A stretch of DNA of 61,649 nt, filler included, from 7 parts of 7 records of this genome joined end to end with filler, not necessarily neighbours in it; one strand, 5' to 3'. Counted from the first letter of the whole stretch, positions 5,819-55,384 are shown. Program-made: numbers and translations. The notes: generated by a model from the letters alone, not told the origin.

Positions 5819-5918
5819 NNNNNNNNNNNNNNNNNNNNNNNNNNNNNNNNNNNNNNNNNNNNTTAATTAATTAANNNNNNNNNNNNNNNNNNNNNNNNNN
5901 NNNNNNNNNNNNNNNNNN
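5819..5918. other. Artificial contig linker
   Basis: 44 N + TTAATTAATTAA + 44 N. Confidence 0.98.
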
Positions 5919-13602: not shown

Positions 13603-14109
13603 ATGCAACTGATTCTCGGCCTGGCCCTGGCTGCCGCTGTATTTGTGATCCTGAAAAAATGGGGCGCGCTGTCGCCGGAAGGGCAGAAGGCGGCAATCTG
13701 GAAAGTCATTCTGGTGGCTGGCGGTGCGCTGTTGCTGTTCATGGTGCTGACGGGCCGGGTGCATGTGATCACGGCCGGTATTGCCGCTCTTATTCCCCTG
13801 TTGAGAAAGTTGCCGGCACTACTGCGTTATGCGCCGATGTTTCGCAAGGCCATGGGCGATTCATCCGGTAATGACTCGACGCGCCATGCGAATGCCGGGG
13901 GCGATCGGGCTGCCACCCGGGGACCAATGAGCACGCAGGAAGCCTGCGATATTCTGGGAGTTAACCCCGGTTGCTCCCGTGAGGAGGTGACCGCTGCCCA
14001 CCGCAAACTGATGTTGAAGGTGCACCCGGACCGCGGCGGCAACGATTACCTGGCCGCCAAGCTCAATGAGGCCCGAGATGTCTTGCTGGGCAAGCGTAAT
14101 CAGGCCTGA
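13603..14109 (+). CDS. Membrane-anchored DnaJ-domain protein
   Basis: TM helices then [37 protein letters not shown] (HPD motif). Confidence 0.88.
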
Positions 14110-14904
14110 TCAGGGCAGAATTTCCACTTTGACGTCGATGGACAGGTTTTCTGCACGCTTGCCGTTCACACGGTAGGTGATGCCTTGCTGCTCCTGATTC
14201 ATGGAGGTGCGAGTTCCCCCGAGGCTGACCCATTGCCCCGGCTCGACCCGCCGGATGGTCATCAGGGCTTCGGTTTCGTAGCCGGGCAGTGCGGCGGGGT
14301 CTTCCTCAAAGGACACGATACTCAGCTCTACCGCCTGGTTCGAGATGGCCTGGGGGCTCACGACAAAGCCGCTTCGGGTTTCGACCTGCTGCAGTATGGC
14401 GGCGGGGTTGCGCCCACCCTTAACGGCAAATGGCAAGGTTCGCACATTGCCGGAGGTAATGTGGGCTGACTGGCCATCCTGCACGATCAACTGACGTTCA
14501 CGGGTTGAATTGGTGCTGATGGTGCGGCGTTCGACGCTGGCGCCGGCCGAGCCGTTCGAGAGGCTGACGCCGCCTCCGGATTGTTTGCCGCCGATGTCCT
14601 GACGGTAGCGTACGCTGATCCTCATCTGTACCGGCGGCACATCCATCGATTGCACCAGTGTTCCGATTTCGTCCAGCAGTGCGGGTTCGCCACGGACCAC
14701 CAGTTGTTGTCCGCGTGCCGTCACCGTAACCGGCGACTGTTGGTAAAGTTCGCGAATCTGTAGCGCAATGTCGTCGGCCGTTCGGTTGTTCAGCTCATAG
14801 ACCCTGGCTTCTGATTGTGCCCAAACGACGGTGGAAGCCGTTAACATCGCAAGAAACAGGGCAGGTATCAGCCAGAGAACGGAGCGGTGCTCGGTGTTTC
14901 GCAT
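14110..14904 (-). CDS. Secretin N-terminal/NolW-like domain protein
   Basis: Signal peptide, YELNNRTA, QLVVRG..DVPPVQMRISVR, QLIVQDGQSAHI, GQWVSLGG. Confidence 0.7.
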   Translation of the reverse strand: MRNTEHRSVLWLIPALFLAMLTASTVVWAQSEARVYELNNRTADDIALQIRELYQQSPVTVTARGQQLVVRGEPALLDEIGTLVQSMDVPPVQMRISVRYRQDIGGKQSGGGVSLSNGSAGASVERRTISTNSTRERQLIVQDGQSAHITSGNVRTLPFAVKGGRNPAAILQQVETRSGFVVSPQAISNQAVELSIVSFEEDPAALPGYETEALMTIRRVEPGQWVSLGGTRTSMNQEQQGITYRVNGKRAENLSIDVKVEILP

Positions 14905-14959
14905 GCAGGCCTCCAGAGCCATGACGGCCATGCCCGCATTAAATAATCCGTTTTGCGGG

Positions 14960-14989
14960 TTGCCATCGTTAAAACCGTAGGTATATAGT
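14960..14989 (+). promoter_or_regulatory. Candidate sigma-70 promoter for the leader/DAHP synthase transcript
   Basis: TTGCCA (14960-65), 18-nt spacer, TATAGT (14984-89). Confidence 0.55.
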
Positions 14990-14996
14990 GAAAAGC

Positions 14997-15134
14997 ATGA
15001 AGACCTTACACGCAGCCTGTCAATTGAATGTTCTGAAAGCTTTCGGTGAAAAACTGAAGGCCGCAGGCTCTGCTGTGTATTTTTGGTGGTTTGGTTATGG
15101 CTTTTATTTTAGCCAGAGCCCGGGCCGCCCATAA
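14997..15134 (+). CDS. Aromatic amino acid-rich attenuator leader peptide (45 aa)
   Basis: MKTLHAACQLNVLKAFGEKLKAAGSAVYFWWFGYGFYFSQSPGRP*; 9 of 11 consecutive codons are F/Y/W; directly upstream of a terminator and DAHP synthase. Confidence 0.85.
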   Translation: MKTLHAACQLNVLKAFGEKLKAAGSAVYFWWFGYGFYFSQSPGRP

Positions 15135-15202
15135 GATCTTCATCGACCGAATACAACGAGGAAGGCAGCCCGGCAAGCAACCCAGGCTGCCACCGGACTC
15201 CG

Positions 15203-15238
15203 AAAAGCCCCGACTGGTAGCCCAGCCGGGGCTTTTTT
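15203..15238 (+). terminator. Attenuator terminator hairpin upstream of DAHP synthase
   Basis: AAAAGCCCCGACTGG-TAGC-CCAGCCGGGGCTTTTTT, about 30 nt before the ATG. Confidence 0.88.
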
Positions 15239-15269
15239 GATTCTGACACAGGGAAACGGGAACACAGAC

Positions 15270-16322
15270 ATGAACATGCCGCTGAAATCTGAAACACTGG
15301 ATGCGCAAGCCTCAAGCGCCTGCCAGCACCGCCAGGAAGCGAGACTGCCCACCGCCGCCGAGTTGCGCCAGCAGTTTCCTGCCGATGAGCAACAGGTGCG
15401 GGCCATTGCCGGTTACCGTGATCAGATCCGCGCCGTGCTGCACGGTCAGGACGACCGCACCCTGATCGTGATGGGCCCCTGCTCCATTCACGACGAGCAG
15501 GCTGCCCTGGATTACGCCACCCGCCTGAAAGCACTGTCAGACGAAGTCAGTGACCGTTTCCTGATTGTCATGCGCGCCTACCTGGAGAAACCCCGTACCA
15601 CGGTGGGCTGGAAAGGCCTTCTGTACGATCCGGAACGCACCGGTCAGGGCGATCTGAAACAGGGCCTGGAGCGTTCTCGCAAGTTGTTGCTGGCGTTGTC
15701 CGAGCTCGGCCTGCCGCTCGCCACCGAAGCCCTGAGCCCGTTCATGATGGATTACTTGGGGGACCTGGTAAGCTGGACCGCGATCGGCGCCCGTACCACC
15801 GAATCCCAGATTCACCGGGAAATGGTCAGCGGCCTGCCCATGCCGACCGGGTTCAAGAACGGCACCGATGGTGGCATTACCGTGGCCAGCCACGCCATGA
15901 AGTCGGCCTCGCACCCGCACCACCACATGGGGATCTCCCATAGCGGCGCACCGGTGATGATTTCCACCGCCGGCAATCCGGATACTCATCTGGTTCTGCG
16001 CGGTGGCCGGGGTGTGACCAACTACGATGAACTGAGCATTGCCAAAGCGGTGGCAGAGCTGGAAAAAGCCGGCGTATCAACGGCGGTGATGGTGGACTGC
16101 AGCCATGATAACGCCTGCAAGCAGGCTGAGCGGCAGGTGGACATCGCCCGGGAAGTGATGGCGCAGAAGCGTAACGGCAATCGGCACATCAAGGGCCTGA
16201 TGCTGGAAAGCTTCCTGGAATTCGGCCGCCAGGACGACGGCAAAGAGCTGGTCTACGGGTGCTCGATTACCGATCCATGCCTGGGCTGGGAACAGACGGA
16301 GACTCTGATCCGCTCACTGTAG
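15270..16322 (+). CDS. 3-deoxy-7-phosphoheptulonate (DAHP) synthase, class I alpha (AroF/G/H family)
   Basis: GPCSIHD, MRAYLEKPRTTVGWKGL, IGARTTESQIHRE, GFKNGTDG, VDCSHDN, SITDPCLGW. Confidence 0.96.
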   Translation: MNMPLKSETLDAQASSACQHRQEARLPTAAELRQQFPADEQQVRAIAGYRDQIRAVLHGQDDRTLIVMGPCSIHDEQAALDYATRLKALSDEVSDRFLIVMRAYLEKPRTTVGWKGLLYDPERTGQGDLKQGLERSRKLLLALSELGLPLATEALSPFMMDYLGDLVSWTAIGARTTESQIHREMVSGLPMPTGFKNGTDGGITVASHAMKSASHPHHHMGISHSGAPVMISTAGNPDTHLVLRGGRGVTNYDELSIAKAVAELEKAGVSTAVMVDCSHDNACKQAERQVDIAREVMAQKRNGNRHIKGLMLESFLEFGRQDDGKELVYGCSITDPCLGWEQTETLIRSL

Positions 16323-16367: not shown

Positions 16368-16467
16368 NNNNNNNNNNNNNNNNNNNNNNNNNNNNNNNNN
16401 NNNNNNNNNNNTTAATTAATTAANNNNNNNNNNNNNNNNNNNNNNNNNNNNNNNNNNNNNNNNNNNN
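16368..16467. other. Artificial contig linker
   Basis: N44-TTAATTAATTAA-N44. Confidence 0.98.
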
Positions 16468-27172: not shown

Positions 27173-27272
27173 NNNNNNNNNNNNNNNNNNNNNNNNNNNN
27201 NNNNNNNNNNNNNNNNTTAATTAATTAANNNNNNNNNNNNNNNNNNNNNNNNNNNNNNNNNNNNNNNNNNNN
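27173..27272. other. Artificial contig linker
   Basis: N44-TTAATTAATTAA-N44. Confidence 0.98.
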
Positions 27273-38944: not shown

Positions 38945-39044
38945 NNNNNNNNNNNNNNNNNNNNNNNNNNNNNNNNNNNNNNNNNNNNTTAATTAATTAA
39001 NNNNNNNNNNNNNNNNNNNNNNNNNNNNNNNNNNNNNNNNNNNN
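38945..39044. other. Artificial contig linker
   Basis: N44-TTAATTAATTAA-N44. Confidence 0.98.
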
Positions 39045-44434: not shown

Positions 44435-44534
44435 NNNNNNNNNNNNNNNNNNNNNNNNNNNNNNNNNNNNNNNNNNNNTTAATTAATTAANNNNNNNNNN
44501 NNNNNNNNNNNNNNNNNNNNNNNNNNNNNNNNNN
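44435..44534. other. Artificial contig linker
   Basis: N44-TTAATTAATTAA-N44. Confidence 0.98.
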
Positions 44535-45689: not shown

Positions 45690-46613
45690 ATGGCTCGGAA
45701 TGATATCTTAAAGCATAAAGTTTTAAATGGCTGGGGCCTGTTTACCTTGGCGTCCATTCCCATATGTGTGTTCGTCATTGTAGAAGCTGCATCAATTGAT
45801 CTACAAACCGGCGCAGGCATTTCTCACATGATCGGTTATTCTGTGCGATGGGCCATTCCCTTTATTTATCTGGTTGTTGCGGCATCTTCGTTCCATGTTT
45901 TGTTTCCCGGCACGCTCTCGAAATGGTGAGTTCGAAACAGAAAATTTATTGGCTTAATTTTCGCTGTGGCTATGGCATGGCAAGGCCTATTTATTCTTAT
46001 CGTTTCCACGTGGTTTCGGGACTATTACTTCAATGACATATATTATTTCAGAGATGAACTTGAAGGAACAGTGGGCTACATTTTCTTAGCGTTCATGGTG
46101 CTCACCTCCTTTCATTTTGGCCGAAAACGCGTAAATCCGTTTCAGTGGAAGCTCATTCAAAAAGGCGGCGTTTACTTCCTGTGGGCCTATCCTTTCAGCG
46201 TATATTGGTGGAACGTATTTTATTATCCAACGCTGGAACCATACACAGACCCAAGGGCGCTTGATTATATCTTTTACTGGGCTGGCTTTATTGCTTTTGC
46301 TCTTAGGGTTATTGCCTGGGGCAAAAAACGAGCTGACAAAATAGCAAAAAACAGCATTGCGTCACCGACACCGGCTGGCCTTAAAATACTTGGCGGTCTC
46401 GTCTTTGCAATTGGTTTAATCGGCGCTGCTTACGGGCAGTACTGGCCATCTGCGGTTGCTTATCTTTTAACGCCTGAACATGTTCGTTGGGCCTCGGGGC
46501 TGGAGCTATGGCTACCCTTCTGGCCATTAGAGCCTTTCGTCCCGTTACTGGTCATGGGTTTGGGGACAATGGTGATGACAATACCTAGGCGGCAAACCCT
46601 AAGCCCTGCCTGA
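45690..46613 (+). pseudogene. Ferric-reductase/MsrQ-like membrane protein with an in-frame TGA at 45927-45929
   Basis: Both track ORFs share a frame: LSKW*VRNRKFIGLIFAVAMAWQ..FMVLTSF..QWKLIQKGGVYFLW. Confidence 0.65.
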
Positions 46614-55284: not shown

Positions 55285-55384
55285 NNNNNNNNNNNNNNNN
55301 NNNNNNNNNNNNNNNNNNNNNNNNNNNNTTAATTAATTAANNNNNNNNNNNNNNNNNNNNNNNNNNNNNNNNNNNNNNNNNNNN
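55285..55384. other. Artificial contig linker
   Basis: N44-TTAATTAATTAA-N44. Confidence 0.98.

Follow-up and report, generated by a model that had tools for sequence, protein, structure and literature searches.

The stretch of DNA analyzed here (the window; 61,649 nucleotides (nt) in length, filler included, made up of seven parts of seven records of one genome joined end to end) contains a gene for a DAHP synthase that is preceded by a candidate transcription attenuator, consisting of a leader open reading frame (ORF) rich in aromatic codons, a series of RNA segments able to form alternative helices, and an intrinsic terminator. The features are listed in Table 1. The segments are numbered 1 to 6; those called 1, 2 and 3 in a preliminary description, which was made from the sequence alone, correspond to segments 2, 3 and 4 here. 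The analysis was carried out in silico and covers sequence features, their conservation, maintenance of the reading frame, and the compatibility and energetics of the two alternative folds.

Table 1. Features of the DAHP synthase leader region, numbered from the first nucleotide of the window (A1, alignment of the window with 59 Marinobacter loci; MFE, minimum free energy)
Feature	Position	Strand	Description
−35 hexamer, TTGCCA	14960–14965	+	Found by promoter scan; TTGC invariant in 60 Marinobacter sequences
−10 hexamer, TATAGT	14984–14989	+	7 nt before the ATG; T, A, A and T at positions 1, 2, 4 and 6 invariant (A1)
Leader ORF	ATG 14997 to TAA 15132–15134	+	45 codons plus stop; peptide MKTLHAACQLNVLKAFGEKLKAAGSAVYFWWFGYGFYFSQSPGRP
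Hairpin domain in 5′ half of ORF, then U-run	15007–15079	+	MFE fold
Candidate control codons, Y-F-W-W-F-G-Y-G-F-Y-F	15078–15110	+	Codons 28–38 of the leader ORF
Segment 1, GGTGGTTTGG	15085–15094	+	Trp-Trp-Phe-Gly codons; pairs with segment 2
Small hairpin between segments 1 and 2, TGGCT...AGCCA	15098–15115	+	98.1% paired
Segment 2	15112–15129	+	Partners: segment 1, segment 3, or the terminator 5′ arm directly
Segment 3, GGCAGCCCGG	15164–15173	+	Partners: segment 2 or segment 4
Segment 4, CCAGGCTGCCACCGG	15182–15196	+	Partners: segment 3, or the terminator 5′ arm and loop at 15210–15222 (putative antiterminator)
Intrinsic terminator (segments 5 and 6, T-run)	15203–15238	+	Hairpin of −24.6 kcal/mol
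DAHP synthase gene	15270–16322	+	Class I (AroF/G/H-type); NCBIfam NF009395, 494 bits (cut-off 343); TIGR00034 aroFGH, 429 bits

The preliminary description had proposed a 45-codon ORF carrying an aromatic block of 11 codons, and both translation and a composition count bear this out. The block reads TAT TTT TGG TGG TTT GGT TAT GGC TTT TAT TTT, giving four Phe, three Tyr and two Trp, and is the sole stretch with nine aromatic residues among the 88,391 stop-free 11-codon windows found in the six frames of the whole sequence. Outside windows that overlap the leader block, only one other has at least seven (FSVYWWNVFYY at position 46194, 7/11). All seven Phe and Tyr codons of the block end in T; in the long ORFs of the window the figures are 48% for TTT and 42% for TAT. 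An in-frame GTG lies upstream of the ATG, at 14988, and the ORF listing starts there. A 5′ leader ORF enriched in codons for the end products, as found here, is one of the marks of a leader-peptide attenuator.

The arrangement recurs upstream of orthologous genes. Relatives of the DAHP synthase were taken from genome contigs (the best 80 of 582), and since two of these (L053 and L066) came without upstream DNA, 78 loci were usable. An aromatic upstream ORF (uORF) precedes the gene in 68 of them, comprising Marinobacter loci L001–L057 (except L053), L059, L060, L062, L063, L070 and L071, and, beyond Marinobacter, two metagenome-assembled genomes (MAGs; L064 and L065), Salicola (L067), Bacterioplanoides (L068 and L069) and a Pseudomonadales MAG (L072). 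Marinobacter, Salicola and Bacterioplanoides are placed by the NCBI taxonomy in the Marinobacteraceae, Halomonadaceae and Oceanospirillaceae, respectively. The uORF is absent upstream of DAHP synthase in six Nitrospira and two Kushneria loci, and two further Marinobacter loci (L058 and L061), which are not counted in the 68, have only a partial aromatic block lying farther upstream. In Bacterioplanoides (L068, 2166–2501; L069, 2018–2501) the leader and terminator are 330–480 nt upstream of the DAHP synthase match, with further spacer between attenuator and gene.

The pattern search used to collect sequences missed L029, L048 and L062, in which the uORF is present, and these were therefore left out of the alignments. 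Alignment A2 consists of A1 plus L064, L065, L067, L068, L069 and L072, making 66 sequences. A covariance model (R1) was built from A2 and run on 151 genomes sampled from the order to which the genome of L001 belongs, giving matches at E ≤ 0.001 in 33 genomes. Full-length matches of at least 55 bits occur in eight of the 151, one per genome, each adjoining a DAHP synthase gene and each with an aromatic uORF, and include three further peptide types (VFFGWFGYGYF, YWCSSEFFFGYYF and YWYFAEYFFGYYF). None of the 22 weaker R1 loci returned has an aromatic uORF at the match, and in the only one of them with a DAHP synthase (L096) the match is at the 3′ end of the gene. The comparison of upstream regions suggested in the preliminary description thus finds conservation in several lineages of the uORF rich in F, Y and W, of the terminator and of the helices that exclude one another.

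The ATG and stop codon of the leader ORF are conserved, and so is its frame. All eight gap blocks within the leader ORF in A1 are multiples of three (3, 3, 3, 3, 3, 6, 9 and 18 nt), and its ungapped length is divisible by three in every one of the 60 sequences. On the 3′ side of the stop codon there are 37 gap blocks of lengths 1–10, mostly not multiples of three, and the sequences fall into length classes, modulo 3, of 26, 25 and 9. When the 66 aligned uORFs are taken together with four new ones, all 70 have at least three Phe, one Tyr and one Trp within their last 21 codons, with a second Trp in 63. Their lengths are 43–50 codons in 66 cases, 61–65 in three, and 31 in one, while the residues around the aromatic codons vary from lineage to lineage. 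The kept frame and codon classes suggest that the leader ORF is translated, and, judging only by the conservation of the codons, all three amino acids, Phe, Tyr and Trp, may be sensed. Identity at third codon positions (29 sequences) is 0.84 in the uORF, and 0.90 in its codons 27–45, compared to 0.52 in DAHP synthase. This indicates a constraint acting mainly at the nucleotide level, as would be expected were almost all bases engaged in competing helices.

The terminator (stem 15203–15217 with 15222–15236, loop 15218–15221, T-run to 15238) was placed just before the DAHP synthase ATG in the preliminary description, and the interval is 32 nt, which leaves no room for a promoter of the gene's own. 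It is 99.3% paired over the 66 sequences, with a G-C to A-U change in three of them. The upstream neighbor (14110–14931) is on the − strand, and the terminator consequently does not serve that gene. A terminator standing between leader ORF and structural gene, without room for a promoter, is a further mark of an attenuator. The 266-nt leader as a whole folds at −102.7 kcal/mol, compared to −80.3 ± 5.0 kcal/mol for 200 shuffles, all of which it falls below (z = −4.46).

The three mutually exclusive pairings reported earlier were checked on the window sequence and are present exactly as written. Positions 15120–15129 pair with 15164–15173 at 9 of 10 positions (C15126 and A15167 being unpaired), 15164–15170 with 15185–15191 at all seven, and 15185–15192 with 15215–15222 by eight pairs, one of them G-U. 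Segment 1 pairs in turn with segment 2, which makes the system a six-segment relay. This helix formed by the Trp codons goes beyond the preliminary description, as do the leaderless promoter geometry and the second DAHP synthase without a leader, both described below. Between the uORF stop and segment 3 lies a nearly invariant Shine-Dalgarno (SD)-like stretch, ACGAGGAAGG (15155–15165), whose conservation is not explained by the helices tested; its SD-like GAGGAAGG at 15158 has no ATG, GTG or TTG within reach behind it. A complementarity of 7 nt between ATGAAGA (14997–15003) and TCTTCAT (15137–15143), paired in the full-length MFE fold, was dropped as a candidate because, by eye, it is neither kept nor compensated in several Marinobacter clades.

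Both alternative folds are conserved over the 66 sequences. The terminated fold consists of helix 1:2 (15085–15094 with 15120–15129), the small inner hairpin, helix 3:4 (15164–15173 with 15182–15191) and the terminator; 97.5% of its 2,482 cells are paired, compared to 27–59% for slid pairings, and six pairs (eight cells) are compensatory. Helix 3:4 is 99.1% paired, and the three sub-helices of 1:2 are 89.7–97.7% paired. RNAalifold independently predicts three elements of this fold, helix 1:2 among them, with 33 pairs, six of which show compensatory changes. The antiterminated fold consists of helix 2:3 (15120–15129 with 15164–15173; 93.1% paired) and helix 4:5 (15185–15196 with 15210–15222; 99.2% paired, three compensatory pairs). 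Of its 1,400 cells 92.0% are paired, compared to 10–42% for slid pairings, with four compensatory pairs (seven cells); two extra outer pairs of this fold lack conservation (31% paired). In the most distant lineages, inspection by eye shows concerted changes in segment 4 and both of its partners, with GACTGCC in L069 facing GGCAGTC at each of the two partner sites, and GGCCTCCGGA in L072 with TCCGTGAGGCC. MAFFT set L072 out of register, and its co-changes are therefore absent from the counts. The check on helix covariation proposed in the preliminary description thus gave a divided answer: the pairing is conserved, but the compensatory changes come to only the eight and seven cells given above.

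Folds constrained by a ribosome footprint were calculated for the window transcript cut at 15224, when the 5′ arm and loop of the terminator are out and the 3′ arm is not yet. Positions up to 15093–15117 were masked for the stalled state, and up to 15147 for the stop state. With the ribosome on the aromatic codons, the MFE fold of the window contains 2:3 and 4:5 (−35.8 kcal/mol); with the ribosome at the stop codon, it contains 3:4, and the terminator arm is free. An antiterminator that excludes the terminator therefore forms on stalling in these folds, as is characteristic of attenuators. The mean energy gain from sequestering the terminator arm is −9.1 kcal/mol when stalled, compared to −3.0 kcal/mol at the stop codon; it is more negative when stalled in 66/66 sequences, by at least 5 kcal/mol in 40 of them. 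Dinucleotide shuffles of the spacer reach the stalled-minus-stop difference in 8 of 200 cases for the window, none of 200 for L064 or L067, and 1 of 200 for L072. Conservation and constrained folding thus support the logic outlined earlier, in which stalling leads to the antiterminator and arrival at the stop codon to the terminator. The paired fraction of terminator-arm bases was also tried as a measure, but it did not distinguish the two states, since the arm is also contacted by weak local hairpins; pair persistence and energy were used in its place.

The promoter is of the sigma-70 type, with 18 nt between the hexamers and 7 nt from the −10 hexamer to the leader ATG. We searched for TANNNT together with a −35 hexamer matching at 4/6 or more positions and 16–19 nt upstream. 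The pattern occurs exactly 7 nt before the uORF ATG in 59 of the 66 sequences and 6 nt before it in two. The remaining five fall below these thresholds: L056, L063, L064 and L065, which have weaker hexamers in the same place, and L072. The same 7-nt geometry is found in the extra lineages L092–L094. An SD-like motif precedes the uORF ATG in only 1/66 sequences. With this promoter geometry the 5′ end of the RNA would be no more than about 2 nt away from the AUG, and on this basis the leader ORF is probably leaderless. No good TyrR or TrpR box was seen in the conserved 5′ half when it was inspected by eye for the consensus.

Metatranscriptome contigs, which give neither transcript ends nor levels, offer a weak hint in the same direction. 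In two runs of one study an upstream contig ends at 14989 or 15000, and a deeper contig starts at 15009 or 15011, crosses the terminator and continues past 15900; in a run from a second study there is a contig break at 15021/15076. Contig breaks in the range 14989–15021 in two studies would fit a 5′ end near the ATG.

The gene that would be controlled is one of a pair. In each of three Marinobacter genomes there are two DAHP synthases of class I and none of class II, and the upstream spacer of the second paralogue, roughly 115 nt long, contains no aromatic uORF or terminator. The attenuator would therefore control one of two entry enzymes rather than the whole entry step. The preliminary description had placed the control at the shikimate entry step, and this stands as regards a leader before DAHP synthase but not as regards a sole entry enzyme. 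Both paralogues belong to the same NCBIfam subfamily, so that feedback specificity cannot be inferred from it. In L082 (1362–1480), a G+C-rich hairpin (CCGGCGGGCGG...CCGCCTGCCGG) lies in the spacer before this second Marinobacter paralogue.

We consider it likely that the element is a ribosome-mediated transcription attenuator controlling one of two class I DAHP synthase genes, and we infer leader translation, a leaderless start, stalling, read-through and a response to each amino acid as follows. Transcription would start at or within about 2 nt of the leader ATG, and the leader ORF would be translated from a leaderless 5′ end. When charged tRNA-Phe, tRNA-Tyr and tRNA-Trp are plentiful, the ribosome would reach the stop codon, where it would either cover segment 2 or depart and let helix 1:2 form; with segment 2 covered or paired in this way, 3:4 and the terminator would form and transcription would end 32 nt before the gene. 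Should any one of these three charged tRNAs become scarce, the ribosome would stall within the control codons, covering segment 1 and freeing segment 2. The freed segment could then act by either of two routes: it could pair with segment 3, leaving segment 4 to sequester the 5′ arm and loop of the terminator (15210–15222), or it could pair with the 5′ arm directly. Either route would allow the polymerase to read through into DAHP synthase, and the modeled folds suggest a device with two alternative antiterminators, relay and direct. The hairpin domain in the 5′ half of the ORF has 79.1% of its cells paired, compared to 36–60% for slid pairings (60 sequences), with weak covariation, and its 3′ part is flagged as terminator-like by a terminator scan; it is possibly a pause site that lets the ribosome catch up with the polymerase.

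A number of observations weigh against this interpretation. The equilibrium fold always contains the terminator when the terminator is complete, which means that the decision must be kinetic, taken during transcription. A strict MFE switch (helix 4:5 with 8 bp or more in the stalled state and none of it left at the stop codon, where segment 4 is paired upstream) is seen in only 42 of the 66 sequences, the failures being mostly sequences that use the direct antiterminator, and in Salicola and Bacterioplanoides 4:5 is the MFE structure in both states. The stalled-minus-stop difference of L068 is not unusual, being reached by 27 of 200 shuffles, and neither is the stalled-state energy of the window taken alone (51 of 200). 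The near-invariance of the segments leaves little covariation, and most of the support consequently comes from conservation and compatibility. In the 29 sequences compared, the synonymous sites of the uORF are not relaxed in the way typical of coding sequence, so that the case for translation rests on conservation of the frame and of the codon classes. As for the 5′ end, the promoter-like site of L072 lies about 28 nt upstream of its ATG, implying that not every leader starts without an untranslated region; nor do contigs prove where an RNA begins, and the contig of a fourth run (X1) covers the whole region unbroken.

A simpler device is possible, though on balance we doubt it: a trp-type attenuator, in which 15112–15125 pairs directly with the terminator 5′ arm and the hairpin at 15164–15191 is static, merely bringing the partners together. 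The sequence at 15112–15125 (CCAG..CCGGGC) does resemble the terminator 3′ arm, CCAGCCGGGGC, and in the window the direct fold, which keeps 3:4, lies at −34.2 kcal/mol, only 1.6 kcal/mol above the relay fold; a fold with the terminator arm free is well above both (−28.4 kcal/mol). Direct pairing is, moreover, the stalled MFE structure in L016-type sequences, and a contiguous version of 8 bp in L068 and one of 6 bp in L067 can be seen by eye. However, if segment 4 did no more than close a static hairpin, it would be difficult to account for the high pairing and compensatory pairs of helix 4:5, and for the joint changes that segment 4 and the loop of the terminator show, by eye, in L069 and L072. 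The relay and direct antiterminators may both operate.

Readings that dispense with attenuation by charged tRNA fare worse. The ORF might be the gene of a small, functional hydrophobic protein and have a terminator to itself, the aromatic residues forming a membrane segment and DAHP synthase being expressed by leaky read-through. The C-terminal half is indeed hydrophobic, the peptide is present in eight protein-database clusters (all hypothetical or unnamed), and leader peptides with functions in trans exist, peTrpL being an example. This is nevertheless very unlikely, given that the peptide outside the aromatic block lacks conservation from one lineage to another, synonymous sites are no less conserved than other codon positions, the element always stands before DAHP synthase and once per genome, and competing helices that overlap the terminator are conserved. 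The near-invariance of loops and linkers such as ACGAGGAAGG and CCACCGGACTC, beyond what the helices need, and the constraint on synonymous sites could instead point to an RNA switch operated by a bound protein or ligand (TRAP-like or a riboswitch) in which the reading frame is incidental. We find this hard to credit in view of a frame kept through 8/8 indels, a conserved ATG and stop, three aromatic codon classes retained in lineages that differ in their nucleotides, a promoter placed for an RNA starting at the ATG, and no match to an Rfam family. TnaC is an arrest peptide that senses a free amino acid, and the nascent W-F-G-[YF]-G-[FY] sequence might likewise sense free aromatic amino acids rather than charged tRNA; Gly within the block is conserved across lineages, and most Marinobacter leaders end in Pro-stop. 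The C-terminal residues vary by lineage, however (RP, RR, RL, FS, HA, AS, ER, HR, TR), and conservation of the Gly, Arg and Pro codons is accounted for at the RNA level by their position in helices 1:2 and 2:3; we give the idea hardly any weight. It is unlikely, but not quite to this degree, that the attenuator has a second function, in which the terminated RNA of ~240 nt and/or the 45-residue peptide would act in trans on further aromatic-pathway genes, in the way of rnTrpL/peTrpL in Sinorhizobium, or the nascent peptide would arrest the ribosome on free aromatic amino acids. Such a role would fit with the near-invariance of the loops, a leaderless 5′ end and the conservation of the peptide W-F-G-[YF]-G-[FY], and, if true, would make the element a dual-function, three-input regulator of aromatic metabolism.

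Of the surrounding sequence, the neighbor at 14110–14931 (−) has faint similarity to the N-region of PilQ secretins (E 3.9e-4, far below cut-off), and 13603–14109 (+) resembles a small J-domain protein, DjlA/DnaJ-like, also below cut-off. Masked stretches, each a pair of 44-nt N runs 12 nt apart, occur at 5819–5918, 16368–16467, 27173–27272, 38945–39044, 44435–44534 and 55285–55384; the second of these is just downstream of the DAHP synthase stop codon.

A cmscan of 14800–15400 against Rfam 15, with E up to 10, gave nine matches, mostly to the terminator hairpin and all far below the gathering score. No family reaches that score, the curated amino-acid leader families included. The attenuator of the Salmonella/E. 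coli his operon has six segments, A to F, of which A:B, C:D and E:F terminate, and B:C and D:E antiterminate. It resembles the present element in its six segments, in the alternation of pairings, and in having the control codons in the first segment. It differs in sensing one amino acid through a run of identical His codons, in a short ORF with an SD sequence, and the two are unrelated in sequence. In E. coli trpL and pheL, the position of the ribosome on end-product codons likewise picks antiterminator or terminator; these are short leaders, each sensing one aromatic amino acid of a terminal branch, whereas here Phe, Tyr and Trp codons are mixed at the first step of the common pathway. The trpL of Sinorhizobium meliloti (rnTrpL/peTrpL) is described as an RNA that begins with the ATG of the leader ORF and is thus leaderless, as promoter geometry suggests for the present leader; unlike here, it is from an alphaproteobacterium, with a 14-residue Trp leader. 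Mycobacteria are likewise described as having leaderless leader ORFs.

The preliminary description had known of no single leader combining Phe, Tyr and Trp at the entry step. For Marinobacter and its relatives, we found no account in the full-text literature searched of a leader with F, Y and W codons ahead of DAHP synthase; comparative studies may already list one. A leader with aromatic codons before DAHP synthase is nevertheless not without precedent, since Corynebacterium glutamicum has the aroR leader, with Phe-Tyr-Phe, before aroF (Neshat et al., 2014, as cited in PMC11802643; PMC4046766). The aroR-aroF system also has a short ORF with aromatic codons and an attenuator before DAHP synthase, its read-through rises on amino-acid limitation, and it is reported to respond to Phe and not to Tyr (PMC11802643, PMC4046766). 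By these descriptions, aroR differs in lacking Trp and in coming from an actinobacterium, while the present element has nine aromatic codons including Trp, a leader of 44–65 codons in most lineages, and a six-segment relay. Among gammaproteobacteria, putative attenuators from Merino's database are listed for Vibrio aroF(aroA-I-alpha_Y)>tyrA (PMC1173090, Table 7); like ours, they have a predicted terminator and antiterminator before a DAHP synthase gene, and are known from this listing as predictions only. The aroF and aroH leaders are also listed as candidates in a Shewanella study (PMC2659441).

We judge the leader to be a real, conserved cis-regulatory element, and to represent an undescribed attenuator family. 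It is absent from Rfam, and is conserved in at least three named genera and several other lineages. For gammaproteobacteria it is unusual in being probably leaderless, in its long leader ORF, of 44–65 codons in every lineage but one, and in its six-segment relay. The shikimate entry step is the textbook case of control by isoenzymes together with repressors, TyrR and TrpR in E. coli; in the present case a single cis element seems to combine the signals of Phe, Tyr or Trp shortage there. The RNA family is ready for use in annotation, the element could serve as a test bed for the coupling of leaderless translation to transcription, and it would offer a natural three-input sensor for the engineering of strains that make aromatic compounds.

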